Notes: generated by a model from the letters alone, not told the origin. Counted from the whole stretch's first letter, positions 701 through 42,424 are shown. The stretch is DNA of 62,953 nucleotides, filler included, from Hausera hauseri (GCA_046269625.1; 10 parts of 10 records of this genome joined end to end with filler, not necessarily neighbours in it); one strand, 5' to 3'. Translations and numbers: made by a program.

Positions 701-733
701 TTTAAAATTCAATGAAAATAAATATCAAATAGT

Positions 734-1830
734 GTGCACATCATTCGTAATACTAAGAACATGCTTAATTCTTTCAAGTCTTGCACAATCGTTGACGGTG
801 TGGCTTTAGACACTTCCAAACCAGGTCATTCATTAATAATTCTCGCACCATCATTGCAAGGGCAAGCATTTAATAGCGTTCATTCGCTACACCACCTTGG
901 TGCTAAAGCCACTTTTCGTTTACGCCATCAACTAGTAATTTGGTCGTCAATGCGTTCTGATGTGCAGGAATGGGTTAAGGAGTGTGTGGCTTGCCAAAAA
1001 CACGAAACAACTAAGCATTTAAAGCCATCACTGTTCCACTTTCCCTGAATATCGCGTTTCGAGTCTGTGCATATCGACATCGTTGGCCCTCTTCCTCCAG
1101 ACAACGGTCATCAATTCATTCTTACTATGATGTGCCGTTCCTCGAGATGGCCAGAAGCCATCCCTCTGCGGAGCACAAATACCGATACTATAGCTGACGT
1201 TTTTGTCCGTACATGGATTAGCAGGTTTGGATCACCGCGCTTCATCATCAGGGACCAGGGTCCACAGTTTGAATCCAATCTGTTCAAATCCCTTGATAAC
1301 CGATTGGGGATCCATCACATACATACTGCGCCTTACCATCCCCAATCGAATGGCCCCCTAGAACGCTTCCGCCGAACACTGAAAACGTCACTAAGAATCC
1401 TTGCAGAGTCCAACACTAGTTGGACAAATCTTCTTCTGTTTGTTCTGCTTGGCTGGCGAAACACTCCGTCTACCTCTACGGGATGCTCACCTACCGAAGC
1501 CTTATTCGGAGCTCGTGTACGATCATTGTTCGAACTAACTGCCCTAGACGACAGTCCTACAGATGAACCGATAAGGGCGGCGCAAAACCACTTCGTTACG
1601 GTCAGCAAAGATTCTTTCTGCAAGATACTTTACAAAGACAAAACATATTTACCCGAAGACTTGTATTCGGCAAAATTCGTATGGCTAAAAAATCGGACAC
1701 CGTGCGGTTTTCAGCCGCGTTATCTGGGGCCCTATAAATAGATACAATTGCATTCACATAATGCAATTATCTATAAAGACGGCAAAAAACTTACATTACA
1801 TATTGGCAACTTAAAGCCCACTTTCTTTGT
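734..1830 (+). pseudogene. Ty3/Gypsy integrase remnant (H2C2 zinc domain, rve core, GPY/F module)
   Basis: HSLHHLG...ECVACQK zinc motif; VHIDIVGPLP, RWPEAIP, DQGPQFES, YHPQSNG..ER core; YLGPYK then ...HIGNLKP. ORFs 734-1048 and 1067-1741 are in the same frame, with stops at 1046-1048 and 1739-1741. Confidence 0.93.
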
Positions 1831-2444
1831 CGACGACACTTCACCGATTGACACGCCAACCTTTTTCTCACTCCTACACTTCCTGCTGCTCCTTTATCTG
1901 TTGCTAAACTAGTTTCACCTCCTCCTTCTGCTTCTAGTTCTACTTCATCATTCTATGCACCTTCTAATTCTATTTCTATCTCTTTTCCTTTCTCTACCAC
2001 TCCCTCTGTTTCATTTTTTACTTCTACTCTTCCGCCTAACACAATTCCAATTTCTACTTCAATGATCGTCTCTCCACCTTCATCCGCCATTTCACCTCTT
2101 GTCACTCCTTCGTCTTCTAACACTCTTGAATACTTTTAACCATCCGACTCCAGCAATCTCTCTCCCTTCTTCACCTTCTTCTTCTCTTCATTCTGACTCG
2201 TCTTTCAATGACACAACACTCACAACAAAATCTGATAATTTTTTGCCCCAACTTCAACCTCTAAAAGCAAACACACCGCGTAAAGACAAAACACGCAGGG
2301 TCACATTTAGCAAGTATAGGAAGCACAAATCAGTAGAAGGCCCCCAACGTCTTGTTCACACTAAGATTAACTGACACAGACACTTTTCGTTTGGCGATTT
2401 TTTCTTTTCGTCTATTTTGATCTTTATAGTTTTAACTTTGCCAC

Positions 2445-2560
2445 GGGGGGTGGTGATATTGTGCCCATCGCGGCCGGTGCCTTTGGCCCATTTGGTCGGG
2501 CACGGTGGAGCGTCCGTTGCCGTCGCGTTGGATCCATAGTCGGACCCGATGTTCTGCCTC
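2445..2560 (+). repeat. Polypurine tract and start of 3' LTR of the Gypsy element
   Basis: GGGGGGTGGTGA (2445-2456) downstream of integrase, followed by TATTGTGCCCATCGCGGCCG..., which aligns with TGTGGTGCCCACAGCGGCCG... at 32258 (canonical TG start). Confidence 0.7.
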
Positions 2561-4185: not shown

Positions 4186-4205
4186 TCTAGTCTTCCTTAA
4201 TAACA

Positions 4206-6562
4206 ATGGCGCAGGGACACCAGTACAACACCCGATCCCGAGGACGATTAACACAGGGTCAGACAACAGTAATCAATGAGATTGATTTAGATGAAGGAAA
4301 TATTAGCCCTACTAATAGTTCAGATACTTTGAGTACAACATCAGCTCCAGGAATATTAATTGATATAGATCCATTACAATTGTCTCCCGCGCCAGTACAA
4401 TATCAATGGGTAAGAGGAGTTAATGGTCGACAAAGGCCATCTTGAGGACAATATCGTGATGCATTTAAATCACGACAATTGACACAAAGAATAACTAATC
4501 AGGAATTAGAATGTCGAACACGTTATGAAATACATAATGTAAATGTAAACAATTTAAGACCAAGACAGAATCGAACAGACGACAGTATACGACAACTAAT
4601 AGAAGAAATACAAGGTATACCTCGACAAGGAGTAACTATAGAGAGATGTTATGAATAATGATATAAGATTGGACGAAGTTGAAGGAAGAATCACCCAAAT
4701 AGAGCAAAACTTGAATGATAATAGTATGGGTTTAAATGAATTGGATGAGAAAACTGTTCAACTCGCACAAGAAGTTAGCATCTATTCTAGACAAATGCGT
4801 GATATTCGACAACAAACTATTGATAATATAGCCACAGTATATAGAAACAGAGAACAGATAGATAACAACGAAAGTCAGGTAAGAAAAAAGATAAATGATG
4901 TGAAAAACCAAGTAATAGTTATAGTAAACGAACAGGAACAAATTCAAGAAGGAAATAATTGTACGCCTTGAGCAAGTAAGGACAGAAGGAATAATAACTT
5001 GACGTCGGCAGGAGGTACATACACCCGAATTCTCAGTAGAGGTAAGTTCAATGTCTTGTGAAACCTCTGATATCGATAGCGGCAACATGGAACCACAAGG
5101 AGATAATCGAGGGCCAGTGGCTCAACAAAACAGATATGACTGCGACCCTAATAATAATAATGTCGTCTACGATCCACCGATCTATAACGAAGGGCGAAGA
5201 GAGGAGAAATACCAAACACTTCCCCGTCTTCAACCGTATGAAGGACGCGTATAGAATTTGGAAGACTTCTTGGACGAATATGATTCTCTAGCCATAGCCA
5301 TGCATTGGAATGATGCTAAAAAATCACTTCTACCAGTGCATGTGAATAATGACTTAAGAATGGCAATAACACGCCTACCGCCACAAGTAAACGAAACTTG
5401 GTTGCAACACAGAGAAAGGATTTTACAAAATCAGCAGGTTAATGTACAAGAGAATCGATATTCAAAATTTCAAAATTGCAAACAGAAGCCAAACGAAGAA
5501 GTTTTGACCTATATTAATAGATTTAAAACAGAAATGACTAGATATTTTGGCCATAACGCCAACGCGTTTGGCGCCATGATAATGAAACAATTTGTACTAG
5601 GACTTTTATCACCATTAAGAGAAGAAGTTAAGTTCCATACTGCTAATAATGTTAACGAATTGGTAGATTATACTAGAAAAATGGCAACTCGGATATATGA
5701 GACACCGTTATGGACTAACCAAACGCAAATAGCAGCAGTGGCTTCAACACCATTATTGGTTAGACCAGACGTACCAAATCGTAGTAATTCACCTTGGGGA
5801 GACTCTTCAAGAAACCAAAGCCCTAATCGTCAAGGCGCCAATACCCCCCAGCGAAGTAATATTCCAGAGAGAGGAAGTTTTAACCAGTCATCTAGAAACT
5901 ATCAAAGAGACATACACTATCAGCAAAGTAGGGGAAACTACAATGATCGACAGTGGAACGATATTAGATATGATAGAACGCGAGGTGACTCAAGAGAAAG
6001 AAACGATAACAGAAGCCGATTCCCTAGTAGAGAAAGATATAGCAACGACCGAAACTTTGGGCGTTACGATGATAGAAACTCATACTATAGACGAGATGAT
6101 AGTCGAATACGACACCCAAACAATCGCTGGGAAGAATCAAGATCCAATTATCCTAACGACAGGCGAAGTGAAAGTCGCAAAAGGTTTAGAAGAGACGATA
6201 GTCGAGAAAGATATAATAGCTTTAATAGAAATGATAATAGAGAATGAGATAATCGACGGAGCGATAGCAAAGAAAGACACAATTCCAGAAATGAAAATAG
6301 AAATGTTTATAATGAATCAAGATTAGGAAATTACGATAGAAGACGTGACTACACTCCACCTCGACGAGAGTTGGATAGATATAATAAAAATCCTAGTCCA
6401 TATCCTCCAAGAGACAGAAATCGAACTCCTTCTCCCGGACAAAATAGTAATAATTATAGATATAGTCGATCATCAGATTACAATTTCAGACGAAATGAAG
6501 CATCATCAAATAGAAACACTTCCCCATACAGATACGATAGGAATGCGACGCCAGAATATTAA
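4206..6562 (+). pseudogene. gag: Gag-like region: N-terminal YNTRSR motif, coiled coil, capsid (Retrotrans_gag-like), Arg/Asp/Ser/Asn-rich C-terminus
   Basis: LQPYEG...LEDFLDEYDSLAIAMHWNDAKK; FQNCKQKPNEEVLTYINRF; KQFVLGLLSPLREEV. Fragments 5051-5254, 5258-6247 and 6371-6562 are in one frame. No CCHC knuckle seen. Confidence 0.8.
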
Positions 6563-6633
6563 AGAATTTCAATGAGAGAAAACCGGATTCGGCAATACCA
6601 TCTTATAGTAGTCCTACGAAAGAGAAAGGAAAT

Positions 6634-7668
6634 TTGTCAGATAATAGAAAAAATAATAACGACGAAAGAAATGTGTCGCCTCGTCGTTCAGTAACTTTTA
6701 ATGAACAAACTAAATCAGCTTTTACGGGTTTGTTAATGGCAAAACCCGTAGAAGGATCTCATCAACTAACACCTGAACTGCCAACCAATAATACTATCCT
6801 GGAAAAACCCTTCATAACTAGGAAACAGTTGGATCAGGCAGAACGAAAAGTACCAGATATCCAAAGAAATACACTTCCATACATGTTATGGCCAGAAACT
6901 AAAGAAATTAAAGATTTACTTTCAACCTTTGTAGCAATAGGAAAAACTAATGAACAAGAAAAAGAATCAAAAATTAACCGAATAAGAATAGAGAATATCG
7001 AAGGAGATCTGATAATTGAATTAGAAGATGTAAAAAAGGAAAAATAAAAATGCTATGAAAACCTTAGACAAATACTCTGTGGAAAACTTGTAGTTGGAAT
7101 AGAATTGCCATGGTTGTTTAAAGAAATACAATTGAAGGAAACCGATATTTATGGTACGTTTAGTGTAGATCAGAATTTTAACTTACCAGATGATCAATGG
7201 AAAATAGAAAATACATTGTTACAACAATTGAATAATTTACGACAAGAGTACCAGATTAAACTTAACCGTCAAGGATCTGCCTACTTCATTTTTCCCAGTA
7301 GACCTTTATATAAGAATGATGGATATCCCCAACGTGAAATGACATGTAATACTACTTTAATTCCAGAGGCAGTATTGCAGCGCATGGACATAAGTATCGT
7401 TCAGAAATGGGATAAACTACTTGCATACAAGAAAACTGACAGAATAGAGTTCGCGGATATAGCTGAACAAGGATCGATTTGTATGGGAGGCATTGATAAA
7501 ATCTACCGTAAAAGGACTGGTATTCAAATAAAAAGAAAAGATCCACCGTGTGCTATAATCACCAATCAAGGAGAAGCCAGATTGCAAATTAATAATAGAA
7601 CAGCAATAATCTCCAAGAAAACTAAGATACTCCCTAACTATCCTTATGAAGGAGATTATCAGATTTAA
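6634..7668 (+). pseudogene. Accessory coding region of element A, unknown function
   Basis: ORFs 6634-7047 and 7105-7668 are in the same frame as 7672-8475 and separated only by stop codons; no motif recognised. Confidence 0.5.
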
Positions 7669-7752
7669 CCTTTGGATAACTGCCCATTATATTTGATACA
7701 ATTGCTTAAGAATACACCCGCGTTAGCTGTGGATGAACCTGTGACACAAGAC

Positions 7753-8205
7753 AGAGAAATAATTCTTACTGGTAGATGTATAACCAAAGGAGACCAAAAA
7801 GGACTTACTCAGGTCACTGCTAAAAATCTGGAAGGAAAGACAATCCTTAATATTCATGTATATCCAAATATGCCAGATAATACTAAGTACACTGAATATA
7901 GTAGACGGTTCAATCCACAACGACAGGAATCGGTAAGCGAATTCATGAATAAATATTTGTCAGGAAAAATGATCATTGGACGTCAGTTACCAGAGCTATT
8001 AAACACATTGAATATAAAACCAAAAAATCTAACTGCCGTATATGTTTTGGAACAAACAAACAGGAACTACAAATGTTTGGACCTATATAATGGCCATAAT
8101 TTGAAAATAATGGCACAGAGATGTTTAGATGAATACCAAAAAACGATGCGAGTGGAATATAATGTACCATGGGTAATAGAAAGTCGAAAGACGTTACGAA
8201 TAGCT
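7753..8205 (+). pseudogene. Degenerate REX4/ISG20-like DEDDh exonuclease-fold domain within element A
   Basis: GLTQVTAKNLEGKTILNIHVYP ~ LARVSIVN..G..L.D.YV.P; FMNKYLSGKMIIGRQLPELLNTLNI ~ ..LL.GRILVGH.L..DL..L.L; HNLKIMAQRCL ~ SLK.L....L. Catalytic acidic residues appear lost. Confidence 0.45.
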
Positions 8206-8861
8206 TTTCCAGCAATAGGAGAATTAAAGAAAACTGAGGAAGCCAGAGCAATCCCGGTAATTGAACCAATAACTCAAAGATATTCAGATATGGATGCTGA
8301 TGAATATTCACAGGAACTTGTTAGAATTAGACCAACAGGAGAATGGAGAGACCCATGTGATGATAGATTAGTTGCACCATTTATCCAACCACGGCTCCAC
8401 CACAATGACCAACGCTATTTGAAAATATACGAGATACAATACAACCGAGTACATCCCAGAAGAAACCCCAAATAATAAACGAATATAAAATGCTTGAAAT
8501 TTTATATTATAATCTTATATCTAACTCAGACATTTTACAACAATCGGAAACTGCATTGATACCAATTGTGAACCAAGGGTTTATCCCAGAAATAAATATC
8601 CCACCAGGATCTATAGTATACGGCGAACTTCTGGAATCAACAATCGAAACAATTAAAGCTAAATTACAAATGTTCGATTCAGCACCCAATGAGGTATGGG
8701 AAGCTTTACGACAATATGAAATACTACCATTAATCAATCGAATACAATGCGCACCATTGCTTATGCCACTAACAAGGGACGATATGTTTTGCTTTTTAGT
8801 CGCAAGAAAATTATTAAAGACTCTAGGAAAAGACTTAAGACGGAAACATAGAAGAAAGCAA

Positions 8862-9105
8862 CCATATATTATAAATATAGAAATTAAAACCAATAAGCGA
8901 GAACAAATGATTGAAGTTACAACAGGAATGTTTACTAAATTTACGGATCTCCGAAGAAAAGTATTCGATGAATTAGATCTCGAAACCAATATAATAGCGA
9001 AAACTGATGTTTATGGCAGAATGGCCTTCGATAATGATTATGTTGTAGATTATGGACTACTTACTGGAAATAGGTACTAAGAAAAAAGGAGGAAAACCGA
9101 GGAAA
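8862..9105 (+). pseudogene. Ubiquitin-like (beta-grasp) domain followed by a basic AT-hook-like motif in element A
   Basis: INIEIKTNKREQMIEVTTGMFTKFTDLRRKVFDELDL...YGRMAFDNDYVVDYGLLTG follows the ubiquitin pattern (G..L.D...L.DY.I); after a frameshift, KKKGGKPRK. Confidence 0.5.
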
Positions 9106-9343
9106 TGCGATTTTAACCCAGTAAGCGATGATGAAGAAAAACCCGAAGAAGAAAAACCAGAAAAACAAAGAAAGAAAAGACCTTTACAACCAAAACGCAA
9201 GGAACAACGAGAAACATTGGAATATATACTATACGACAATATTTTAACGAATTACCATTAGTGACGATGAAAATGAACCAACACAAAATCCAATTCCAGA
9301 AACATCAAACCAGAACGACATAAATATACCAAATGTGACACTA

Positions 9344-9739
9344 ACGACTCATGAACTTCTATAACAGTTAATCAAGAAAGCAAATCCAAAACAACTTAGG
9401 AAAATACCAATAATTACAACAATTCAACTACAATCCATAATAGAAACTGCTAGATATGTTTCGTCACAAATTACGAAATTATTACGCAAATACGAGATGA
9501 AAGGAGGTTTAAATAAAGCACTGACACGGTTATTAAAAGACTGTGATCAGAATCGATTATTGATGGCACTAGGATGCATAGTGGTTAGTTTTAAAAATCA
9601 AACGGAGATCGATGCTAAACTACACCACACGGTAAGGGAATTAGCTTACCATATGGATAAGTTAACAAAAGATTGGGTAACTAAACATGGTGGTTGGGAT
9701 GAAATTCTCAAGAGATTCGATCCAAACACACTAATATAA
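9344..9739 (+). pseudogene. Bcl-2-like domain in element A
   Basis: DWVTKHGGWDEILKRF matches the BH2 motif (W...GGW..F); LNKALTRLLKDCDQNRLLMAL sits at BH1 spacing; THELL*QLIKK sits at a BH4-like position, with an in-frame stop at 9362. Confidence 0.55.
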
Positions 9740-9759
9740 CCCAAGGATACCAACATCTC

Positions 9760-11690
9760 AGATTAGGTAGTGCAAATCATTCATTTGCTATTATACATAA
9801 TGCCATGAGCAGTTTGAAAACGACCAAAGCATTGGAAGCTTATGATTGTTCCCAACCAGAAATAACGGACAGACTTTCGTTAGTGGACATAGGCAAGTGT
9901 CAAAACGCGAATCCAATATCAGTGAAGAAAGAAGGTCCTTACAATTACAATTTGCATCAGAGAATCAGTTATCAACTAGTGCAAGTAAAGGAATGCCAGG
10001 TTAACAAAGTAATATTCGCTTATAACTGTGGTCATAATTCATGGAATTCGGTGATTATCCCACCAGGATTACCTAAACCTGTAACAATAACAGCTGAAAA
10101 TTGTAGAAAGGCTATAGATTTAATTCACGTAGGTCTAAAACAACCAGTACAAGCAGGTATAGGAAAATGAGTTCACTCACAAATAGTTATAGCCGGAAAA
10201 ATATGGCCTGGATATGGAGGAGGTTGTGATGGAGGAAAAATAATGTTACACGAAAAGAATACAAAGTAAACTTTGATGCGATTACAGGAAAAATGTTGAC
10301 TGCCCTATCCTGCACGTACTCTGATGGAGTGTGTATGTTGGGAGAATCCACATTAGTTTGGGAAAAGACGATTATGATATGTCCATTGGCTTTCCTGAAA
10401 CAAGTATCTATGTATGAAATGCAAGGCGATTTATATTATGATGATGAATACCAAGAACCATAACACAATCATAACATAAGTTTACCCACTCCACGAACTC
10501 TGAAACAAACCCCTTCCCTGAAAGTTTTAATGTCATCCAATGACAAAGATGGAATAGTATTAGCACGCAAAGGAGCAGTATCGACTTGTGGATCAAATGC
10601 GGTTTATTCAACATTTTATGAAGATTTGTTTGTAACGAAAGAAACGCTAGTGAATACTGGAAAGTTACCAACTGAAGATATAAAATGGTACCTATATAAG
10701 AATAACAAGATAGATTATATTTATCATACTGCGAAAATGGATTTGGTTGAGTTGTATAACATGATGGTGATAAGAGATTGTAAAATCACTCAAAAATTAA
10801 ACCAGCACGACTTGATATTGGCTAGAGAATTTCCTGAACAAATTGCTTCAGTTATGGGATATCGCTCCGGAACATTCGGTAGAGTACGAGGCGAAATATT
10901 TCATGTATACCAATGTCCACCGATAGAAGTAATGCCTGTAACATCTAAAAAGCAAATTACACGAATGAATTAATGGTTCAATATAATGATAAAAATATGA
11001 TCAAATATGGATATCTAGACCCTATTACTCGAAAATTATTATTACCTACGGGAGTTACCTTCGCACCATTCTATAAAGGATTCTATCCAGCTTCTAAGCT
11101 TAGTGAAGAAAGATGGACTAAAATCCGCCCTCCAACCATGATGAACGTACCACAGACAATTGGACTATTACCATTGGATAAAGGTATGAAATTTAAGGTA
11201 AATTGAGAACTTCCCAATAGTGGATTGTATTCGCTAACTGATCTAGAAGCGGTAAGAAAACGAGTATTATTTCAGAATATTCGAGAAAAGGTAATAACAG
11301 AATTTGTATATACTGTTACAAAAGGATCGGATGGCACTCCTAATTATGGAATGTGATTATCAGTTGATCATTTGGAGACAACAGCTAAGAAGATTCTTTA
11401 TGATTTTTGGAATAAATTCCTTATTTTGGTCACGTTATATCCGGAATTTTCGGCACATAAGTTATAATTACTAACATATTGGTTATATTAAGACAAATAG
11501 GAGCTTCCAGAAATATAAAGAATGTACGTGAATGTACATGGCAAATTATGTTGAGATGTATTCCATCAATGGCTCAGTCAGTATTAATATACTGGCATGC
11601 AAAAGGATTAGACAAATTGAGGAATGAACTTTGTTTAGCTCCAGAACTGAAACAACAATTACAAGCTTTTATTAAATTAACTGTAGAAAA
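9760..11690 (+). pseudogene. env: Chuvirus-like / gB-type (class III) envelope glycoprotein, frameshifted
   Basis: Hydrophobic leader VVQIIHLLLYIM; AYDC...LSLVDIGKC; KECQV...YNCGHNSW; ENCRKA; RDCKI...LAREFPE...GTFGRVRGEIFHVYQCPP; GLYSLTDLEAVRK; hydrophobic segment near 11410-11490. Confidence 0.8.
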
Positions 11691-12027
11691 ANNNNNNNNN
11701 NTATAAATTGCTAAGAAAGAAAGCTAGAAAGCATTTTGAGCCAGACGTACCAACATCCTATAAATCTGAATCACTGATGAATACCCAGAAGTAGATCATA
11801 GAGACATGAAAGCTACATCTATGTATGAACTCCCAATAATAAGGGATTCGGATGAATACACCTGCTTACCGAGTACTGCTTACCGACCAAATTTATTTCG
11901 ACAACATAATACTGCGGATAACAGACGAAATAATACGAAATTTATTTTTATGAATCAAAATACAAAGCAACGGGAAATAACCCATACAGTGCAGTACAAT
12001 TCAATGGATGGAATATTATGGCACTAC

Positions 12028-12127
12028 NNNNNNNNNNNNNNNNNNNNNNNNNNNNNNNNNNNNNNNNNNNNTTAATTAATTAANNNNNNNNNNNNNNNNN
12101 NNNNNNNNNNNNNNNNNNNNNNNNNNN
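12028..12127. other. Artificial contig spacer
   Basis: Same N44-TTAATTAATTAA-N44 linker. Confidence 0.98.
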
Positions 12128-13442
12128 AGGACACAAAAGTGACAGCTTTCATGGCACGGTTCAGTCCACAATGACTTCACAAACGGAGATTAGAGCTGGA
12201 AGAAAAAGGTTTTGCATGAAGGTAGCTGCTTTTGTTGGCGCCAGATTGGATTATTAGCATCACAAATGTAAAAAGTCTCAGATTGATAAAACCACTGAAT
12301 TTTGGAGAACATTAGAGAGCAAGCATTAAAGAGTCAGACAACACAGACAAATGAAGTCCTATGTTAGTATGATAATCCCTTAGATAAAATATGGATGGAA
12401 ATTGTGGGCATACTTTCAACCATAGACAATACCACGTTGGTTTCCTTGAGTTATTATCACCATGTGGATATCGATGAACAAACATATGAGCTGTAGGGAG
12501 AAACACGTAAAGAGAGAAAGAATAATGTCCACAAAGGATGAAAAACCACAAGAAACCATTAGAAAGACCAACAGAAATACATGAACACAAATAAGACAAT
12601 GGCTGTAGAATCCATAAACTGTAATTGTTGCAACGTATTAAAAATGTCATGGAATAAACATTTTCATTTTCAAGCATGTTGATTGGCTGATTACAAATGT
12701 TACTATTTTTAGTTACTTCCCATTAAAACATTTGTTAATAAGCGTAGAAATTGGATTTCATGTGAAAATTTCATTGCATAGAGTGAGAAAAAATCCATAA
12801 CGACCAATAAAACAAAAATATATCCCGATCATTTCTACTGATAACGTGCGATAACAATGAAATTTGGTGAAACTAACATGACATACAGCCGATTAATAAT
12901 CACAATGACGTAACAGCGGAAATGCAGCATTTCATTTGCCAGTTTTCGTACAGGGAGGTATGTTTGTTGTCTATAAAATACAAAGTCACTGAATTTTGTC
13001 TGAATGCATGGTAAATTATTATTGGCTCATATGCAACAAATGTTCTATTTCTAGTAACGAATTTCATATAACTGCGCCAGACGTAACAGACAACGATTGA
13101 AAATAAATTATTATTTTTAAAGATTACCAAAAAATCCTTGATTGCGTATCACTCGACACGTACACAAACACAGAATGGCCGCTTTTTAAAGAATTTTCTA
13201 TTTTAGTAACAATTTTGTTTAATTATTGAAAATAAATGGACAATTCCCAGACAATTTAAAGCTATCTTGTAGAATTAAATTAATCGTAATTATATAAATT
13301 ATAAAAATGAAATAAGAAAATTACATTTGATACGAAAGCTCCTTCTCCAAATGCAGCCAGATCAATACCGGAGAAACATTTAACATTATTGACTTTATAA
13401 TTGGATGTAACTTTATTTATCAATTATTAAACGATGTCGTAC

Positions 13443-13737
13443 CTCGAGTTCGACCGACGTCTAATTTCGAGTCAAACGTTGGTGTATTACTACTATTATT
13501 TGGCGAGTCAAATAAATCCAAACCGCTACTGATTCTGATATAGTTTTTTGAATCTAATTCCGAATTATCACACTGTTTTATCGTCGATATTATGCTTTTA
13601 TCGTGATCTAAATAAATACCAAACAAAATAGGTAAAACCAACAAATTATCGCCAAAAGAACATTACAAATTTCTTTTACCAAGTGAAATCTCTGAAAAAT
13701 AAAACTCACCTGACGTTTGTATTCTGACGGTTGCCAT
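13443..13737 (-). CDS. Possible first two exons of an unidentified spliced host gene (exon 1 13737-13710, exon 2 13607-13443)
   Basis: ATG at 13737, donor G|GTGAGT, T-rich acceptor TATTTATTTAG, phase-compatible join MATVRIQTS-D-HDKSIIST..., second donor G|GTAC. No protein family recognised. Confidence 0.3.
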
Positions 13738-14639
13738 TGCAGAATTGAAATAAATTGAAAATGGCATTACCGATATTTTATATGATCAATATCGCGAAAG
13801 TGGGTCAATCTCAGTGATATGTTTTTCCATGAATCGACTATTGCTTCTCACTATTATTGTAACCAAATAAAGGGAAGTTTTGTGTTGAGACAATTTTTCG
13901 TCATGATAGAAGTAAGAAATGACATCACATTTTTAATTACATGGCCTTTTAATTATGCAACAGGTGTTTATATCCCAATGTCAGTGTACAAGTCTACATG
14001 TGCAGGTGCAAGGTGTAAACAGTGTAGCAAATGGTGTGGGATTTTTAATATTTTTCTCTGTCTTGACTTTTGTTCTGACCAAAACATTACCAGTTTGTCT
14101 ACTAAACATGCAAAGATCAAGCAGTCAGTAAATGATAACGCTATTTAACTGCAATCATTCTGGTGGTGGTGGTAGATCTCCTGGTAGCTGTGAGCTATAA
14201 ACTCTTGCCAACTGCCCCAATAAAAAACTTTCATGTCTTTCATGAGCTGGATCAACATCACTGCACTCTGGACTGGTCCATAGGTGCTCAGATTGCTGCA
14301 TCACTATTTGCTCAAGCATGTCATGCTCAACCATTCTGTGTTAACTGACAAGTCATCTGGTATGTCTGATGTGATGTTTACATTTGGCGTGGTCATTTTC
14401 AATCCTTAGTTTTCACATTCTGGAGATTGTTGTTGAATCACAATTAGTGAGGTCCTCAGTCCATACGTACTTTCTGTGAGCACTGATGACTTCAGCCAGA
14501 TTCATTGGCTGACTGTAGGATATGACAGCAGAGCTGGCCAGTTGGTCCGTTCTCTCATTACCCTCCAGACCGGCATGGCCTGGTACGAATATGAAGGTGA
14601 CACTGCGGACTGTGCACCTCTGCAGTGATTCAAGCCAAG

Positions 14640-16930
14640 GCCGACGTGTCCAGCCAGGCTTTCCACCTCCATAGTCAGGCTGCTGGTAGTCACGGCAAAG
14701 GCGCCACTAGCCTCTTTGACTGTTCTTTCACATGAGCGGGCTGTGAATGCACATGCGCACCGATGATGAAGAATTACCGAGCCGTCTGTGTATATGACAG
14801 AATCTTCTTGAGTGGAATATCCGCTGATAAGTGTTTGGACTTCAGCCTGTACAGCGACAGGACTTTACTCTTTGGATTGGCTGTCAAGAGTGATGATGAC
14901 TGAGGTGTCTCGAAATATGGGAGGGATCGATACCCATTCCTCTCCTGGTACTATGACGTTATCTTCTGCTCTTCCCATCCAGACTTGCCTCTCTTCTGTC
15001 TATTACCCTTTTTCTTAATGAGCTATGGGTATGGCCGTTGTTCCACAACAGCACTGATCCTCAGAAATGCAAGTGTTCTGCAATTTTTGATCCTGTTTTC
15101 CATAGTTGAAAGGCATTCTATCAGGTGGGGGAAAACAGGGTCACCAAAAGAAAAAATGGGAGAATAATATCAAGGAATGGACAGACATGACGTTCAGCGC
15201 ATCACATAACACAGAAACGAACCGATACGAATGGAGAAGAGTCCTACGAGGGTCAATCAATTTTCCCCAACGACCATTATTGGTTGTGGGACTGATGATA
15301 ATGGTGATCCAAAGTTGGACAGTCTAAAAGATATCGCATGGCAAGACAGGTGTATCTTTTGTGCATATGTTGCGCATGGCCTCTTTCCGAATTCTTTTGA
15401 GTTTGCCAATCTGAGTGTGGCTGATGGTGAGGATCGGCAGCGCGTATTCAATGACTGACAGGACTAGACCGTGATACAACAACACAAGAAGTCGCTGTTC
15501 AATATTGGCAGCTGCCATGACTTTATTACGGACAGCTCCTTACGAACCTTGGATATTACATGCTCCACGTGATCTTTGAAACACAGACTGCCATCAAATT
15601 TCACTCCCAGGTATTTCATTGAGACAGACCTAGCAATATCTCTGTCTCCAGTTCTCACCACAGGCGTATCAATGTTGACAATGTGGTTGTCATGTGGGAG
15701 TACAACCATGTTATTGCCACCTTTGTTGGATTTATAGATGATTTGAGATTTCGCAACAGGATGTCAGGCGATTCAGTTCGTCATGCAATAAGTTGGTTAC
15801 CTCGATTCTGTTGTTTCCCTGTCGATACACGAAAATATTATCAACAAAGGATAGTGTTCTTTCCCTCCCATTAAGTTGATGTTCAGAGACAGCCAGTATG
15901 TATGCATTGAACATGATTGGTGATGGCGTTGAGCCCTGTTGGGGACCTGGCCAAATTGTTATTTTCTGAGATGTTCAGCTGCCACACCTGAGTGCTACCT
16001 TTCTTTCAAATAGAACTGCCCCTATTGACCTTACGAGGAGAGGGTCTGCATCGAGTTCCAAAAGTTTGGATATCAACTACTCGAATGGTATCCTCTTGTA
16101 TGCATCTTTTTGGTCGATTGTGCACGTTTCTACTCCTTCATGAAATCCTTCGTATACGTCGTAGGCAAGGACTGCAGCGTTACACCATGTCTCTCTGTTG
16201 TATCGACCGCCTCCTAGTGTGGGTGCGAGCAAGTGGTTGGATTCAAGGTGCCAGGCCAGTATGCGTGCGACAATCTTTTCAAGCAGTTTGCCGATGGTGT
16301 TCTGCATCGTGATTATACGGAAGCCGCTGATATGGGAGTGGTCTTTGTAGCTATGTAGCCAAGTCTCCTTGATCACACCGTCTGTAATGCTGTTGTTGAA
16401 TTCTGTGGCCAAGTCATTTATATCTTCATCCGCTAGATTGCTTATGTCTGCGTATCGAATGCCGTCAGGCCCTGAGGCTGTGTTGCGAGAACCCTTGAGT
16501 ATTCTGCGCAGCACCTCAATTGTAATGAAGTCATCTTCACCTAGCGCCATACCTTCAGACAGCTTTGCAATCTTGGCTCTGTTCTCTAGTCTCGTGGCTT
16601 CATTCTTCTGGTCGGTCTGCTCAATGAAGCGTACAAGTAAGACCTTTCCCTTGCTTTTATCGGTTCGCTGCCAGTTCATGTTCGTATTCTTGAAATCTGT
16701 GACACCTCTGTGTGTAGTATTGATGTTCATGCTCCGATGTAGGCGCCAGAATAAACCGAGAAACGTTTCCGAACATGTCTTGGCTTGTTTAGCGCAGGTC
16801 TTGAAGTGCATACCCTTGTCATTCACGCCTTGCTACAATCTCTAGTGCATCCTAGAATGATGCGCATGGCCTCATTCTGAATCTTTTCTAGTCTCTGAGT
16901 TTGTGTCTTACTGAGCGTCAGAATTGCCAG
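14640..16930 (-). mobile_element. Decayed non-LTR retrotransposon with RT and RNase H (I/Ingi/R1-like group)
   Basis: TASGPDGI, FRIITMQNTIGKLLEKIV, D.KDAY (16077-16826); LSFVDNIFVY (degenerate FADD); MKYLGVKFDGSLCFKDHV; RNase H motif SVIYTDGSV...SGAFAVTTSSLTMEVE near 14660-14800. Confidence 0.85.
15095..15310 (+). mobile_element. RTE-clade LINE 3' fragment nested in the minus-strand LINE
   Basis: GGGKQGHQKKKWENNIKEWT...NRYEWRRV...PQRP is the typical RTE ORF C-terminus, followed by a TGATGATAATGGTGAT tail. Confidence 0.75.
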
Positions 16931-17030
16931 NNNNNNNNNNNNNNNNNNNNNNNNNNNNNNNNNNNNNNNNNNNNTTAATTAATTAANNNNNNNNNNNNNN
17001 NNNNNNNNNNNNNNNNNNNNNNNNNNNNNN
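16931..17030. other. Artificial contig spacer
   Basis: Same linker. Confidence 0.98.
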
Positions 17031-18055
17031 GTCTTTGCTCGGTCTATGTCTTCTTCGTCCTTCGCAATGATTGATTTATATCGACATAATAATTCGTAAA
17101 ACTGGCATTAAGCTTCTGGTGAAAATTTCGTATCTAAGTATGGTGGAAATTCAGTCTATTTATACGGTTTCTCTTCAACCGTTATTGCTGATCCTTTGTA
17201 AGTATGCCCTAGAGTAGTGTTAGCATATAATCTTACTGAAATTTTAGCCTTATTCACTATCCTTACGGGTATTCGCCCGGATGCTACTCGGGTCAGTACG
17301 GTGCTTAATATTATACTTGGATTTAGCGTTTCTTTCGGCTCAAAGTATACTGGAAAATCACCATCTTGACAGATTTGCGCGAATATCAACAATTCCGTTC
17401 TAGGCGGAATGTTCTTGTCGACCGGAATCCATACTTCTCCGGATTCTCTTTCATTATTAATCTTAATTTGTTTTATCGGTCGGATCTCGATTAACTTAAC
17501 GTTTGGTAGACGTCTTAATATATCACACCCTAGTACTACGTCGTCTGTTAAGTGTTTTATTATAGAAAATTCATGTTGAAATGTTTGTCCCATTATTTTA
17601 AGATTAGGATTCCACTTAAATTTTGGTCTTGATTCTTGTCCGAAAGCTCCTATACTTCCGGGATCCGTTGCTATTGGTAGACGTGGCTTATTCCGTAGTG
17701 CTTTTGGTATCGATCCGTCCTTTATAAATGATTTCTCTGATCCGGTATCTACTAGTGCGTATACTTCCCAATCGTTACTACTAATTTTGGTGAAAGGCCT
17801 ACCTTTTATTTTAGGTTGTTTAACGACGGATATCTTGTACCCATTTATACTGATTTCGGGTATCTTATTTTCGACTACTTGCCTTAGTTCTTCAATGGGG
17901 TATAACCCATTATTTACGACACTCTCGTTGTTCCGTTCTGGCGTACTAATTAACGGTTCTCGATTGTTTGTGCTATGGAAAAATGGCATTTGTGGATTAT
18001 CCCAATTTGATGATTTAGTTTTTATATTCCGTGAAATCCTGGGAGAGTATATCAC
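17031..18055 (-). pseudogene. pol: Retropepsin aspartic protease and Gypsy-type PR-RT spacer
   Basis: VYALVDTGSEKSFI and DVVLGCDIL; spacer IPPRTE...GRIPVRIVN...NTTLG. In frame beyond the stop at 17156: FSPEA*CQFYELLCRYKSIIAKDEEDIDR, typical of the segment just before Gypsy RT. Confidence 0.88.
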
Positions 18056-18286
18056 TCTGTGGTCATCTACTGATTGGCGGCATAATTCAGATTTTTCTTT
18101 AATTCAGTACATTTTCCGTAACATGCCGTAATGTTTTGTCCCTTCATAGGGATCTTCGTAACTGAAAGGCTTTCGATAGATTTCCGAACTATAGGAGTTA
18201 ATAGATCTCGTATCGCTGTGTTCATATTGCGGTGCCGAAGGGGGCAGCATTGGCAAAGGCGGCCTAAGTGTCTTACGATTGCTTAT

Positions 18287-20259
18287 CTAAGAGACCGCGT
18301 CTCTTGCCTTAGACTCATCATCATCCGAATCGTTTCTTCGAAATTTTGTATTTCTTTGTCCTATAGAAAATATAGGTTTTCTCTTTCGTTTCCGATTATA
18401 ATAACCAACGTGTCTCTCCACGTTGCTTTTCCATTTGTTTTCTTCGTAAGCTTTCAGAAATTTTACAAACAGCGTTATGATCGCGGTCAAAATTTTGCAT
18501 GAAAATCCGGTTAGAATAAATATTTCATAGCCATTTATGATAGATTGAATTATAGCCTTTACGAGTTGTACTAAGAAGTAGATGGCTAAAAATACTGATG
18601 CAGCTTGTCCAAAAATTAAAAATCTTCCCAAGATTTTATATAGTATTTCTGTAGTGACGCTCTGATAATGATTGACGCCAAGTAGGGATTCCCATTTTGT
18701 TTGATAGCTTGTGTCATCCGTCACCGTTGACACGGCTCTATTTAGCTCATGTGTACGCTATCGAGTGAAGGTTAGGAATTGTCTGAAGGCTTCAATTTCC
18801 TTTGTTCTCTAAATCCCTTTACTTGCAGTGTCGGCGAACTTATCGTCTGTTATGCCTTTTAACAAATTTGTTCCAGTTAATTTATCCGGCGTGGATATTA
18901 TTCCTCCATTAAGCAGACTTAACCAATCTGTCTCACTCCTCTTGAACATATGTTCGCCTAAACCTGCTTTGCATTCTTTCAAAACAGTTGGCTGTGTCGG
19001 GTTTTCTAGCAAGACTCTAGTGAGTGGCATAGCCAATCGAGGTACGTTTTGATATATGACTGGCAATTCTTGGATACAACGTTTTTCCTCCATGCGATAC
19101 ATCTCGTTTTTCGCATTCGTAGGTCAACAGGACTTCTCCGGTAGCTCGTCCGAAAATGCCTTCTTTCATTGGAATTACGGGCGATGGTAATTCTGGATTT
19201 GCGTATATTAAGGCTAATTTGGTCCTCATGATTTCCATATCCAATTTACAGTCATTTGCGATCATCTTGTGATATAACTGCTAGTCCAATTTGCCCTTTA
19301 TAATAGAAGTAATTATCTCTATTCTTTAAGTAATCTTCTATTCTTACATTTTGTGTTTCTAGTGAAAAGGTAGTTATTGCAGCTTCTTCTACGAAGAGTG
19401 CTTCATAATTGGTGGCGTACATTACTACATTGCATCGAGAAAGCATTTGCTTCTTAATGAACTTCAACCAATGATCCTCGGAGATCAATATCGTGGGTGT
19501 GGGCTGTTCAGCTACGTCCTTCCTTGACCTAGCATTATTGTCAGTCGTGTCTACATATCTTTTTCCAGTGGTTTCATTAAAATTTATTTCTTTTATGTTA
19601 ATAGTTACAATCGTTCATAGGTGGTGGGGTCCAAATAACTATCGAATTTCGGAAAGTACAGGCACCATCTTGGATATGTCACTTATGGTTTTCGGTATGT
19701 TTTTGTAACACTATGGAACATCACCTTTTGGTTCCTCATTTCTGTCTCATAGAAAATCGACCACTACTATTCCTGCTTCTCTTCCTTTTCCTGTATTGTA
19801 CTCACCCCCTTTACAGTATCCGGTATGCATATCTAATTTCCCAATTGCTACTTTATACACTCGAATTATCTTTCCTGATTGGGCTTCTAACTCCATCCCA
19901 TCCCATCTCAATATTTCTGTTTCCTTGGCTTGTTTGCATTGTTGTTGATCTAAATCCATAGGAATTAGCGGTGTCGTTGGTTTTACGATTGACGAATGTC
20001 CGTGCATATTTTCACAGTGAAGAATGCTTCGCGATCGTCGTAACGTACACTCTATCCCATCGATTGCAATTAGTTCGCGTTGTTGGTACGAGAAATACTT
20101 TTTCTCAATGGTTACTAACTTGTGAGGGCGGGCGTCTTCGCATAGTTCAAGATCCATAAAGGAATATCTTTGTCCAACCTTAAACTTATCGCAGTCATAT
20201 ACTGTGATTGCACCGAGCTGTCTTATTAACACCATAAGTGTTATTAGTTTAATCATCCA
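18287..20259 (-). pseudogene. env: Chuvirus-like / gB-type (class III) envelope glycoprotein, frameshifted
   Basis: Signal-like WMIKLITLMVLIRQLGA then ITVYDC...YSFMDLELC; IECTLRRS...HCENMHGHSSIV; QQCKQA; NDCKLDMEIMRTKLAL...NPE...GIFGRATGEVLLTYECE; CIQELPV; TM FLIFGQAASVFLAIYFLVQLV; basic tail. Confidence 0.85.
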
Positions 20260-20767
20260 ACTTGATTCACTATCTCGCGCTGAGTTAGTTAGTATTAAAT
20301 TTCTTACCACATCTTCAATTCTAGTGGTCGGCCTGTTTCCATCTTCGTCGTCAAATAGCTTAGACCAATTTAACTCTCTAGGTATCTTCCTAGCAGCTGT
20401 TCTGATCAATCCAATGGTTCGATTGAATTCATCTTCCTTTACAGGATTTGTTTTGATTGCCAAGTACAATATTACTTTCCTTAATTATTCCTTAGTATTC
20501 TCTACCATAATTTTCTCGATTAAAACTTCGTCAGGTAAGTTGCTTTTGTTCATTTTGAACCGAAATGTTCTCATTATTCTCGCATCATCATATATTGCTT
20601 TTTCTTTTCCATCTAACATCTCTTTTCTTGATCCCGAATAGTTCACTATTTTGATAATGTATCTCAGCAACTCGTTTAACTCTTCGCTATCGGAGTTAAT
20701 CGCGGGCATGGATAATTGCCTTAATTCTCATATCAGGGCTGCACTTTGGTCAATATTATATCTTATT

Positions 20768-21204
20768 TTTCTTGGCCTTCCAACTGGTCGTTTTTGTTTT
20801 GGCGAAGTTGTTATAGCTTCGTTCATCGGTACTAGATTCTTATCGTATTGTTCCTTATCTTCCTCACTTTGGAGGTAGTCAAAATACACGACAGGGTCTC
20901 GGATTCCCATAATTCGTCCTACGCAGTGTTCGTCTCGCACTTTTCTTACAGCCTCGTTTTTTGTCTGTTCGTCGCTAATTATAGCCACTATTCGATTTGA
21001 TTTCTCTGGAATAATTCCAACATCTATTAGTAGCTCAGGTTCGTCCAGTATTCTACCTTGAAAATATAATCGGTAATTTATTTCGTCTTTTCCACTGTTT
21101 TGTACTATCCATTGTTTTACTTCTCTAACCGATGTTATCGTTGTGCATTCAATTTCTCTCTCTTCTATCCATTCAGTTGATATTTTTACCTTAATCGTCG
21201 TTTC
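20768..21204 (-). pseudogene. Ubiquitin-like domain (approx. 21204-20975) plus AT-hook (approx. 20794-20768) in element B
   Basis: IKVKIS...TSVREVKQWIVQNSGKDEINYRLYFQGRILDEPELLIDVGI closely follows ubiquitin [40 protein letters not shown]; no C-terminal GG; downstream KRPVGRPRK. Confidence 0.75.
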
Positions 21205-24034
21205 GGGTTTAGCTTTCAAGAAATCAGCATATTTCTTTATCAATAGTCTGGGTACTGAGCTATAAACGGTATTTTCGCTAGATAGTTTGGTTAATGTAAG
21301 GATCAATTGTCTCAGTTTGCTCTCCGTCATGTTGACGTTAATCTGCTCAATTAATTCTCTCGGCCCGTGCGGGATCCAAGAGCATCTCCATATCAAATCG
21401 TCGGTCTGTTGGCAGAATATCCTTTTGTTGAAGTTGGATGGGTGTTTTTGGGTTTTGGTTGTACACATCTTCCAAATAAGCATCCCATCCTGAGTCGTCT
21501 GTGACGTCTGGAAGCCCATAATCCAACAATACCGTGGACTCTTCGTACAGTTTCGCGTATCTCGTTTAATCTCAACTGTACGTCTCTCATTAAGTTGGTT
21601 CGAAACACTGCTCCGTTTCCACACGCTAGTTGTATCGTTTTTAATGTCGTTCCTACTTCATCTGTAGAGAACAACCCTTTTCTTTCGTAATCTGTTAATT
21701 CGGTTGTTACATCCGTTAACCATCTTTGTACGAAATCTCTTTTATTCGTTAAGTCTGATTGCGTGATCTTATATTTATTCTTGAGTCTCCAATTCTTTGC
21801 CTAATTAATCTAGCTTCGTAGCTCTGCTTTGTGCGAATTTGCAATTCTTTTATATCTTTAACTTGAGTTGTCAATTGTCGCGTCTTGTCGTCATTTATCT
21901 CTGCCATTGTCGATAGCAGCGATATTAGTCCGTGCATTTCTTTTAGAGTTCTCGAATCTGGATCTATTTCTTCAATCAGCTTCTTTAAGAATTTAGCCTC
22001 GTCTGGTGTGAGGTGACAATCTTTCGTTATTTCTATCAACTAAGCAGGGCAATTTTGGTCGGTACCCGATGCCCACTCAAAAGGACCATGCGGATATTTT
22101 AGTACTTCTAACGCAATTTGATGATTTGGGCAAATATCCAACGTCGATAGATCTCATGGATATTTCATCTATGGGCCTTGTTGCCAAATGTCGTACACCT
22201 TCTAGGCGGACACCTTTTAGTCTCATCGATAAGGAGGAGATCTTTTCCTGTTTCACCGATTATTCCATTTCTTCGATCATGGTATACACTTCTTCTGTGA
22301 GTTTTATTTCCTGATTTTTACTCGTAAACCTTTGTCTCGATAATGCGTTAAATTCAACCCGAAGGTTTGCCTCTATTTTGTTACGGAGTATTTCCTTTAA
22401 CTGTTGTTTTAATATCGGTTCACATTCTGAATATTTCCTTAGACGATATTTCGTTAGACTCGCTAATCTGTCTAACAGTTCAATCCATTCGTTGAGTTGG
22501 TTATCTATCATTGGTTTTGCGTTTATTACGTTTTCTAATCGTTCGTATGCGTCGTTCAATTTATTGTCTGGACCTTTAATATAGTCCATTACTCCTTTAA
22601 CGTAGTTAATTTTCTTTTTGTATTCGTCCAGTTCTAAATACAGGTTTTCGTTATGTTTTGTACTTCCTGGTTCTCTGCATACGTTATTTTATTCCTATAT
22701 CTGTAGATTTCGTAGCGCCTTTTATCTTGCGAGGCTATGCGAATTCCTATGTCCGCATATTCTTTGGGTGCATTAAACGCGATCGTGCACATTTCCATTA
22801 TGAGAGGAATGTCTGCAAGTTCTATGCCTAATATTTAAATTCGTTTTTATCCAATTCGTTTATTGGTTTATTTTTGAGTTGATGGATTACTGCACTCTTT
22901 ATTTCTGCCATTAACCCCTCTAAATTCCGTTTTGTTCGCTTCTGTTTTGGATCCGTCTCTAACGTCTTTAGTAATCCTTAGGCAGTCGCCGCTTTACTTT
23001 TAATTTCTATCTCTTGATTATTCCATGTGTCAGTGAAGTCGATTTCGCTTTTCATCCATGTATCTAGTTTTGTCTTCCATTCTTCAATCGATTTCTCCAC
23101 AATGTCATCTACTTCCTCTAGTTCTTTTTCCCTGCTAACGTCTTCTTCAAGGTATCGTTTAAATTCTTTATACATTCTTTTGGCGAACTGCTGTTTTTTT
23201 CCAGATACATCTACTTGAGTTTTTATATGCCTTAATTCTTCGAGGTTGTGACGTATCGTCTCCGTATCTGTTGGCGCTATCCTAATTTCTTTTAATTTAT
23301 CTGCATTTTTCCAGGACTTTTTGATCCTCCATTCTTTTCCGACTAGCTTTTTAATTCGCTCTGTACAATCAGTTTCGCCTTCACTATCGGGCAGTGGACA
23401 TATCTCGTTTATCTCACTGTTCGCATCTCTTACTGTTACGCTTGTACTTGGAATATCTGGAACTTCAGTAAGCACCACGTCTGGAGTGATTAAGTTCGGG
23501 ATGTACTCTACGTCAGCATCTCGGAATTTGATCTTTCCTGCGTTGTCTCTTTAATGGCGATCTGGATCGACCCTTTGGTTTCTTTTAATCGATGGGCTAC
23601 GACCTCTATTTTTCGTTATTTTAAGTACTAATGGAGCTATATATTCACTCTCTATTTCGTCAGCCACATCTTGACGTCCTTCTGTCAGGTTTTCAGATTC
23701 AGCGTCCAAGTCTACGCTGGGCGATGTCTCTGCTACTTCCACCTTGCTTGCCCCTTCTGTTGCTACGGACTTTACAGGCACGTTCTTCTTGCGAACCATA
23801 TTACTGTTATCTGGCGCTATTAAGTACTCATTTCGTTCGAGGTTCAACTAGTCCATGATATACTTTTAATATTCGTACGTTGTCTTCATATTCCTTTCGA
23901 GCCTTCAGGATTTGCGGATTATTTGTTTCTCGTTGGCTTTTCAAGTATCGACGTGAATCTTGAATATCCAAAATTGCGCCTATGTCGCCTCTGGGACCGT
24001 ACTTCGTCTCTAGATCTTCCTGCGTCTTAATCAT
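21205..24034 (-). pseudogene. Accessory coding region of element B, charged and likely helical, unknown function
   Basis: Run of minus-strand ORF fragments (23828-24034, 23551-23847, 22978-23478, 22260-22589, 21749-22039, 21347-21529) with E/K-rich composition. Confidence 0.5.
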
Positions 24035-24041
24035 ACTTGCC

Positions 24042-24955: not shown

Positions 24956-25055
24956 NNNNNNNNNNNNNNNNNNNNNNNNNNNNNNNNNNNNNNNNNNNNT
25001 TAATTAATTAANNNNNNNNNNNNNNNNNNNNNNNNNNNNNNNNNNNNNNNNNNNN
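24956..25055. other. Artificial contig spacer
   Basis: Same linker. Confidence 0.98.
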
Positions 25056-25279
25056 GGTTATAGTAAAATGAGAAAACTTTAAACATGTATCGTTGATTAT
25101 GTTTCAATATTAATTCTATTCCTTCTGGTAGTTCTGCATAATTTAAAAATATGGTATATAAGGCTTGTCCTTGGATGGAGGTTGAGGTTAGGTTTCGTCC
25201 TGAGCGAAGTACTATGGTCAGTTGTGCCAATACACTGGTCATACATAATGTTAATATACATGCAAATAAGGCTACTTTA

Positions 25280-28649: not shown

Positions 28650-28799
28650 TTGCTCAACCGCATATATTGCTAGTATATATGATATGAATGTACGTACCTT
28701 GTATAATTCTGTTCATTTGAATGAGTTGGTTGGGCAGTGCAGTTTCCAATTAAACAACATATCACCGAAGAAGATAGAAGTATTGAATTTGGTCTACTT

Positions 28800-29250: not shown

Positions 29251-29420
29251 ATTACTTCTATCGTTTGATTATGGGTATATGTTTCTTTGTTGCATGTTCT
29301 AGCTTTAACCACCGGTATTAGGCTACTTCCGATCATACGTTTACTAGTTGTTGGCAATATATTTCGTCTAGTAAAATTACACGATTATATCGGTTCAGTT
29401 TCTTGTTAAAGTATACTATT

Positions 29421-30179: not shown

Positions 30180-30229
30180 GCAATGTTTCCTCATCAGTAT
30201 TTTTATCTTGCATATATTTTGTAAAATTG

Positions 30230-36815: not shown

Positions 36816-37685
<870 letters not shown>

Positions 37686-42402: not shown

Positions 42403-42424
42403 AATGTCAATACGACAATTGCAG

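Follow-up and report, generated by a model that had tools for sequence, protein, structure and literature searches.

The planarian Burro elements are described (PMC6431247) as carrying an envelope gene (Env) that lies between gag and pol in their reading frame and follows ubiquitin-like (Ubl) and BCL2-like domains, with the order Gag, accessory, ubiquitin-like, BCL2-like, Env and protease in one polyprotein. GAG-ENV-POL elements with a gB-type Env are also reported from nematodes, bryozoans and flatworms, and are stated not to be monophyletic (Chary and Hayashi 2026, PMC13524379, available portion). In Burro1, a captured anti-apoptotic RING/BIR module reportedly protects the stem cells of planarians (Lee 2026, as summarised in PMC13465017). 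We analysed a 62,953-nt stretch of Hausera hauseri DNA (GCA_046269625.1), hereafter the window, in which separate contigs are strung together by N44-TTAATTAATTAA-N44 linkers. The element studied, element A, occupies one whole contig of it (4186-12027, + strand, with a 10-N gap at 11692-11701); since the contigs are joined by linkers, the sequence before 4186 or after 12027 is not part of element A.

This contig is a dead, decayed copy of a high-copy gypsy-type element. Precisely, we read it, with a probability of about 80%, as a decayed genomic copy of a Burro-like Ty3/gypsy long terminal repeat (LTR) retrotransposon with an envelope, whose intact members would encode a single polyprotein made of Gag, accessory region, Ubl, Bcl-2-like domain, leader, gB-type Env, anchor and protease, then reverse transcriptase (RT), RNase H and integrase. 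The layout is real and, judging from sequence, neither pol-less nor new; its cargo is apparently different from the descriptions of known elements. A previous sequence-only reading had implied that the layout was novel, an implication that is not supported, given the published position of Env in Burro and in the GAG-ENV-POL elements (PMC6431247 and PMC13524379).

Layout, relatives and state of element A

The features below were placed with the help of two natural relatives, the proteins P0001 and P0002, and of a second element of the window, element B.

4206-5700, + strand: Gag, with an N-terminal low-complexity and coiled-coil part and then a capsid-like Retrotrans_gag domain, with stops and frame changes (PF03732; P0002).
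5700-6560, + strand: R/N/S/D-rich Gag tail of ~300 amino acids (aa) in nucleocapsid position, with no CCHC knuckle (composition of P0002).
6853-7230, + strand: accessory repeat 1, an alpha/beta domain of ~130-150 aa that occurs twice, here in its first copy (repeat alignment; 52% identical to P0001).
7231-7725, + strand: domain between the repeats, with no Pfam match (55% identical to P0001; pLDDT <50).
7726-8190, + strand: accessory repeat 2, of predicted RNase-H-like topology (low-confidence model).
8616-8858, + strand: five-helix bundle, TFIIS-N-terminal/LEDGF-IBD-like or ARM/HEAT-like, the two being tied (predicted fold).
8862-9077, + strand: probable Ubl (best conserved region of all, with 78% identity to P0001; weak alignment to the Ubl of B).
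9332-9739, + strand: probable Bcl-2-like helical domain with a BH2-like WxxxHGGWDE and stops at 9362 and 9737 (74% identical to P0001).
9740-9831, + strand: internal hydrophobic leader, a predicted signal or signal-anchor, with a stop at 9764 and a frame change near 9802 (77% identical to P0001).
9832-11425, + strand: gB-type (class III) fusion glycoprotein ectodomain, broken (PF24664).
11425-11592, + strand: Env membrane anchor region (hydropathy peak at P0001 residues 1911-1929; 64% identical to P0001).
11593-11981, + strand: tail between Env and protease, spanning the 10-N gap (a contig of sequencing run X2 covers 11633-11891 across the gap).
11982-12027, + strand: first strands of a putative retroviral aspartic protease, ended by the contig just before the expected D(T/S)G (alignment to B).
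17031-24955, - strand: element B, which comprises a Gag tail, a helical accessory region, a probable Ubl, a leader, a gB-type Env with its anchor, a tail and a protease (PF24664 E 8.5e-14, PF00077 E 8.1e-6).

The contig starts 20 bases 5' of the Gag ATG and stops inside the protease. Its decay amounts to 17 stops (some in alignment overhangs) in the frames collinear with P0001 and P0002, and to 10 frame changes between 4206 and 11592.

P0001 (1963 aa; ENA, 7573-base contig) was the sole protein returned among the 128 candidates of a search with an Env piece. Its frame is unbroken from the Gag tail to the anchor, taking in accessory region, leader and Env, and it is collinear with 5870-11592 at 47-70% identity. 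Its accessory region, searched against 1.84 billion representatives, gave two proteins only, P0001 itself (the source of the query) and P0002 (1339 aa). The latter runs without a stop from the Gag Met as far as accessory repeat 2 and lines up with 4206-8070 at 36-62% identity. As these two open proteins overlap and between them span 4206-11592, a single frame holds Gag, cargo, leader and Env in this family (family A). Identity of copy A to P0001 is 78% in the Ubl-like domain, 77% in the leader, 74% in the Bcl-2-like domain, 67% in Env and 40-59% in the linkers; the greater conservation of the Ubl-like domain, Bcl-2-like domain and leader relative to the linkers points to selection on these domains.

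Two sequencing runs, X1 and X2, contained 28,203 and 3,453 matching pieces, respectively, with 30 of 30 bins covered in each. In X1, 1,999 pieces were at >=99% identity and 9,119 at <90%; X1 may be related to the source of the window and was not counted as fully independent. The proposal of the sequence-only reading that a lineage, rather than a one-off rearrangement, has this architecture is thus borne out by the open P0001 and P0002 and by the thousands of diverged pieces, in all 30 bins and in two runs. One X2 joint jumping from 4954 to 11938 was set aside, as a single contig, with 22 bases on one side, is all that supports it.

That a gypsy element received a chuvirus-like glycoprotein gene or host genes by chance insertion, or that the assembly is chimeric, could be suspected from a short contig with a 10-N gap and many breaks, and from the fact that PF24664 also covers chuvirus glycoproteins. 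However, the independent open proteins P0001 and P0002 cross the junctions, which refutes such an origin unless both are chimeric in the same way; moreover, the second, distant element B has the same order and the X2 contig bridges the gap. We regard this origin as exceedingly unlikely.

For Gag, the PF03732 match (E 3.2e-5, 24.5 bits vs a cutoff of 24.1) lies within 5255-6244, and the region is collinear with P0002 residues 1-~520 at 36-52% identity. Residues 541-850 of P0002, in the Gag tail, are composed of R (22%), N (16%), S (13%) and D (11%), and CCHC patterns were found 0 times in P0001 and P0002; an RNA-binding role of this tail may be supposed. BEL/Pao elements such as Anakin reportedly carry a chuvirus-derived glycoprotein, and they share with A the same broad glycoprotein family inside an LTR retrotransposon. 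They differ in that the Gag of A is Retrotrans_gag, of Ty3/gypsy type, with no match to any BEL-type Gag family. Gag is followed by ~3.2 kb of coding DNA (6571-9765), a region of ~1000 residues, and the motif patterns of protease, RT and integrase gave 0 matches in the six frames of the contig, in agreement with the sequence-only reading, which had described Gag followed by about 3 kb of coding sequence lacking these three.

The leader corresponds to the hydropathy peak at P0001 residues 1337-1355, where P0001 is open. It had been described as being in frame with the upstream Bcl-2-like open reading frame (ORF) apart from one mutated stop; the frame is in fact shared, but two stops (9737 and 9764) lie between, not one. 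At the stop at 9764, another letter than that of copy A is present at position 9765 in 11322.9 of 11354.3 of X1 depth and in 127 of 127 of X2; because nearly all the depth has the other letter and P0001 is open there, this stop is a private lesion of copy A, and its interpretation as a mutation was correct. The leader is out of frame with the AYDC motif of Env, owing to the frame change near 9802.

Env pieces of A matched PF24664 at E 2.6e-13 and 1.4e-16, and the Env of P0001 matched it at E 1.9e-63 over profile positions 5-591 of 653. In P0001, the gB-type ectodomain is flanked by the two hydropathy peaks. The motifs of A, namely AYDC (9838), RDCKI (10773), FGRVRGEIFHVYQC (10875) and VVQIIHLLLYIM (9767), have counterparts in B in VYDC (20202), NDCKL (19256), FGRATGEVLLTYEC (19154) and ESSWMIKLITLMVLI (20268), so that all the shared motifs proposed from the sequence alone were recovered.

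Element B and the region after Env

Elements A and B have a common order and a common Env, and their accessory cargo is largely different. All 4 piece pairs of the two Envs aligned at z 8.8-19.1 (0 of 1000 shuffles for each). The helix bundle and Ubl of P0001 aligned weakly to B (z 3.4, 9 of 1000 shuffles), with a z of 0.7 for copy A itself, while the Bcl-2-like domain plus leader were not alignable to B (z 0.0-0.5). None of the 9 frame pairs between the tails of A and B was above z 1.8, and none of the 3 frames of the 5' end of B aligned to the family-A capsid. Hence the claim that A and B have the same layout stands for order and Env, but not for the accessory regions, which are mostly not alignable.

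The probable Ubl of B (20989-21210) matched PF00240 at E 3.6e-4 (20.7 bits vs a cutoff of 25.4) and also ubiquitin/ISG15 chains. B has one broken CCHC knuckle (~24122-24080). Its anchor motif (18622) and protease (17755) are in the same frame with two stops between them; the DTG of the protease is at 17749. After the protease, a stretch of ~75 aa (17240-17470) is in the position of the dUTPase-like domain of Burro, with no dUTPase match, and the contig ends before RT. By eye, a GWDAYL string at 21560-21620 (- strand) of B, upstream of its helix bundle and Ubl, recalls a BH2 motif; if it is a real BH2, B would hold a Bcl-2-like domain in another place than A.

After Env, the tail of A keeps the A-rich strand bias (A 0.40) and frames change within it. 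The last 15 codons of A (11982-12026) are in register with the 15 residues before the VDTG of B, with a score of 37 and 5 identities, while the runner-up among the 15,488 15-mers of contig A scored 18. Among 123,019 15-mers of the window, the end of A ranked second only to B itself, the third best scoring 32. In B, the PF00077 match begins with this stretch; taken by themselves, the final 31 residues of A had no Pfam match. Since the contig of A appears to end in the start of a protease, and B has Env and then protease, the sequence indicates that pol follows env in A, as in B. The sequence-only reading had anticipated a protease after env, and what we take to be its start is present at 11982, cut by the contig end. 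Neither a polypurine tract or LTR right after env nor an intact copy with pol between gag and env was seen.

No direct repeat >30 nt, and therefore no LTR, was found in element A or B. Elsewhere in the window, 722-2450 (+ strand) holds the 3' end of a different gypsy-type element, with an integrase core at 1049-1738 (PF00665 E 6.2e-11) and a purine run near 2445. This integrase sits on a separate contig and was not linked to A.

Accessory cargo and comparison with known elements

The domain calls of the accessory region, Bcl-2 included, rest on sub-significant matches. Profile and single-sequence searches of the PDB gave no meaningful significant match for the accessory domains of A; a designed-repeat match at E 0.0011 was dismissed, as no stretch passed. 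The best ESM Atlas scores (0.75 and 0.77) were uninformative. The two structure models were poor (mean pLDDT 47.8 and 33.6), and a wide VIA comparison of the small one gave generic helical hairpins (best Z 5.7) and no Bcl-2 row. In the viral structure library two rows had E <0.001 with rmsd >40, which is meaningless.

Repeats 1 and 2 aligned to each other at z 10.7 in P0002 and 5.8 in copy A (0 of 1000 shuffles for each) and at z 3.4 in P0001 (7 of 1000). The poor model of repeat 2 gave a VIA Z of 4.7 (rmsd 3.1, 72 aligned residues) to residues 319-391 of HIV RT, and a weak Foldseek row for the ERI2 nuclease (E 2.1). By eye, it may resemble a DEDDh/REXO4-type exonuclease that lacks the catalytic acids.

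Only the helix bundle was modelled with any confidence (residues 674-741, pLDDT 63-79). It matched, over almost their whole length, the LW domain at Z 8.7 (rmsd 2.3, 74/84) and the MED26 TND at Z 8.3 (rmsd 3.3, 78/90), and also the ARM/HEAT protein adaptin at Z 9.0 (rmsd 2.0, 67/587), with TND/IBD entries in 7 of 50 rows; these scores fall below the level trusted for helical bundles. The Ubl that follows is a probable assignment, from its position and its weak alignment to the Ubl of B.

Region 9332-9739 is quite probably a Bcl-2-like domain. Of its 24 listed Foldseek rows, 13 were of the Bcl-2 family (Mcl-1, Bcl-xL, Bcl-2, Bcl-w), all non-significant (E 3.8-9.8), and in three of these entries the matched chain could be a designed partner. 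BCL2A1 was matched by phmmer at E 0.22, and BCL2A1/BFL-1 made up 4 of 48 structure rows (E 1.3-2.4); these recurring matches share the sequence signal and are not independent.

Compared with the giant gypsy-like Burro/GYPSM1 LTR retrotransposons of planarians, which exceed 30 kb, and as far as the available description goes, A shares retrotrans_gag, accessory domains and a Ubi2/SUMO-like and then a BCL2-like domain (both only probable in A), followed by a mononegavirus-like fusion glycoprotein and then protease; very high copy number and common decayed copies are further likenesses. The duplicated RNase-H-like domain and the TND/ARM-like bundle of A are not listed for Burro in that description. 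From Gag Met to protease A has ~2,600 codons, while Burro ORF1 is given as 4,873 aa including pol. Because CCHC knuckles and RING/BIR/MATH/ankyrin cargo were tested and not found, we filed A as Burro-like, not as Burro1.

The GAG-ENV-POL errantiviruses of HSV/gB type (Platyhelminthes_C1a, Smed_errantivirus_1-6) share with A a gB-type Env before pol (PMC13524379, available portion). In a comparison made by eye on 60 of the 229 sequences of its supplement, the six Schmidtea Env rows were collinear with P0001 in domains I-II, with shared motifs, while the bryozoan, nematode and branchiopod rows among those 60 were not collinear with P0001. In the Env N-terminal block, a hand count gave 20 of 37 identities between P0001 and Smed_errantivirus_6, and 14 of 37 for copy A. 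Over the whole supplement file, the YATNY of B was present in 2 rows, each from Schmidtea. HCGH was likewise present in 2, one from Schmidtea and one, at a different position, from a wasp element; of four further motifs, three were absent and one occurred in 1 row. By eye, the Env of A thus seems to resemble most the Schmidtea errantivirus Envs, and from its Env the host is probably a planarian or other flatworm. The text of PMC13524379 has 0 occurrences of Burro, Bcl-2, ubiquitin and exonuclease, its 7 supplements have none for these domains, and the accessory region is undescribed there. No description of the cargo of A was found in the literature searched; one may be in Grohme 2018 or Lee 2026 or their supplements.

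Alternatively, A could have the same order with Env and pol as separate or frameshift-joined ORFs, as in the compact nematode and bryozoan GAG-ENV-POL errantiviruses, its likeness to Burro being convergent. The non-monophyly of GAG-ENV-POL elements (PMC13524379, in the portion available) would agree with this, as would a cargo unlike that of Burro1 and the frame changes in the tail of A. On the other hand, Gag to Env is one frame in the natural copies, anchor and protease share a frame in B, the succession of Ubl, BCL2-like domain and Env is that of Burro, and the Env looks, by eye, like those of Schmidtea but not like the rows examined from bryozoans and nematodes. We consider convergence improbable.

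Readings, neighbouring contigs and meaning

Several observations weigh against the Burro-like reading. As regards pol, no relative with pol attached was found in the contig and longer-protein searches, the catalytic Asp lies outside contig A, and RT, integrase, LTR and primer binding site of A were not seen within the contig. P0001 ends ~35 residues after the anchor peak, so that its open frame covers family A up to that point and not as far as the protease. As regards the cargo, the searches run gave no significant match for Bcl-2, for the Ubl of A or for an exonuclease: the Ubl had no direct match in Pfam or PDB searches, and the repeats had no Pfam or PDB sequence match to an exonuclease. 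For the Bcl-2-like domain there is a better-scoring rival in Pfam, the Death domain (E 0.006, 17.1 bits, cutoff 22.6), three-dimensional superposition on Bcl-2 chains gave Z <=3.3 with a model of pLDDT 48, and no counterpart was detected in B by alignment. As regards Burro itself, 2-3 CCHC knuckles are given for it in the available description and none is present in A; the AIR1/RING, MATH, BIR and ankyrin modules of that description were absent from the Pfam matches of P0001, P0002 and the window pieces. That the Env comparison was made by eye on 60 of 229 sequences belongs here too.

Longer loci of family A were sought by pattern matches, and 0 of 46 and 0 of 160 were confirmed in metagenome contigs, 0 of 3 and 0 of 60 in viral contigs and 0 of 73 and 0 of 82 in genome contigs; no longer proteins were found with the tail of A and the protease region of B. 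This lack of a pol-linked relative, the early end of P0001 past the anchor and the drop of X1 depth to 592 in the last bin (vs ~11,000-28,000 in most bins) would be expected of a non-autonomous derivative that lost its RT and integrase while retaining gag, cargo, env and the stub of a protease, and that depends on a complete partner to copy it in trans. However, a protease start appears to be present in A, 60 X1 and 14 X2 pieces run past the ends of the stretch (which end is not specified), low coverage of a last bin follows from the way bins are built, conservation of the tail is poor, and B has a protease and downstream pol-like sequence. A non-autonomous derivative therefore appears distinctly improbable to us.

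Under the preferred reading, that of a complete Burro-like polyprotein in intact members, the two hydropathy peaks of P0001 fit a cytosolic Gag and cargo, a luminal Env ectodomain and a cytosolic protease and pol. Gag and cargo would be made in the cytosol, the leader would route the Env ectodomain into the endoplasmic reticulum, and the anchor would bring protease and pol back to the cytosol; signal peptidase would then release Env, and the protease of the element would cut the rest. One polyprotein would give equal amounts of Gag, Env and Pol. Bcl-2 proteins carry a tail anchor after the Bcl-2 domain, and the leader, ~15 residues after the Bcl-2-like domain, sits where this anchor would be; we therefore propose that the cleaved leader would keep the Bcl-2-like domain at the membrane, delaying the death of the producer cell. 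Both the duplicated nuclease-fold domains and the helix bundle would have been captured from the host and would serve as binders or decoys.

Other contigs of the window carry non-LTR retrotransposons and eukaryotic genes, which suggest that the source is the AT-rich genome of an animal; no tRNA genes were found. A decayed non-LTR element is at 14500-16930 (- strand), with an RT fragment (PF00078 E 0.012) and, by eye, an RNase-H-like stretch; an apparently intact non-LTR retrotransposon is at 49350-54128 (+ strand), whose ORF1 matches CCHC weakly and whose endonuclease-RT ORF, of 1137 aa, reaches the contig end. At 25056-29420 (- strand) there is ~4 kb of A-rich decayed coding sequence without a convincing Pfam match, which may belong to the accessory part of a further large element, and at 29827-32073 (- strand) two ORFs of 373-374 aa in the same frame, with one stop between and no Pfam match. 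Contig 33721-49170 carries an intronless two-box HMG ORF (39147-39770), a VCP/p97-like AAA fragment (36819-37652), RING ORFs and a P-loop fragment (40778-40990) with a weak poxvirus A32 match (E 0.035), and may be what is left of a Polinton-like or other DNA-virus-like element that had taken up genes of its host. An unbroken 818-aa ORF at 54665-57118 (- strand) has five BRCT matches, is TopBP1-like with no introns seen, and is possibly a retrocopy or captured gene. At 59853-61093 (- strand) a 255-aa coiled-coil ORF lies next to a gag-like stretch with a broken CCHC-like motif.

As the gene order was already known, the value of element A is comparative. A and B keep the framework of probable Ubl, leader, Env and protease, while their cargo differs mutually and from that of Burro1, which suggests a modular accessory slot. 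In a bolder version, which we hold to be improbable, the polyprotein of A would contain its own LEDGF-IBD/TFIIS-N-like binder of integrase or of a transcription factor, two inactive exonuclease-fold decoys against RNA sensing, a Bcl-2 homologue with a tail anchor doubling as the Env signal peptide, and an RS-type tail in place of zinc knuckles; if this is true, the region separating gag from env would be a cassette in which captured host modules can be exchanged, as happens in complex viruses, and the host may lie outside the planarians. Finally, family A, being without the RING/BIR module and with a well-conserved, probable Bcl-2-like domain, lets one ask whether elements of this kind generally need anti-death cargo.

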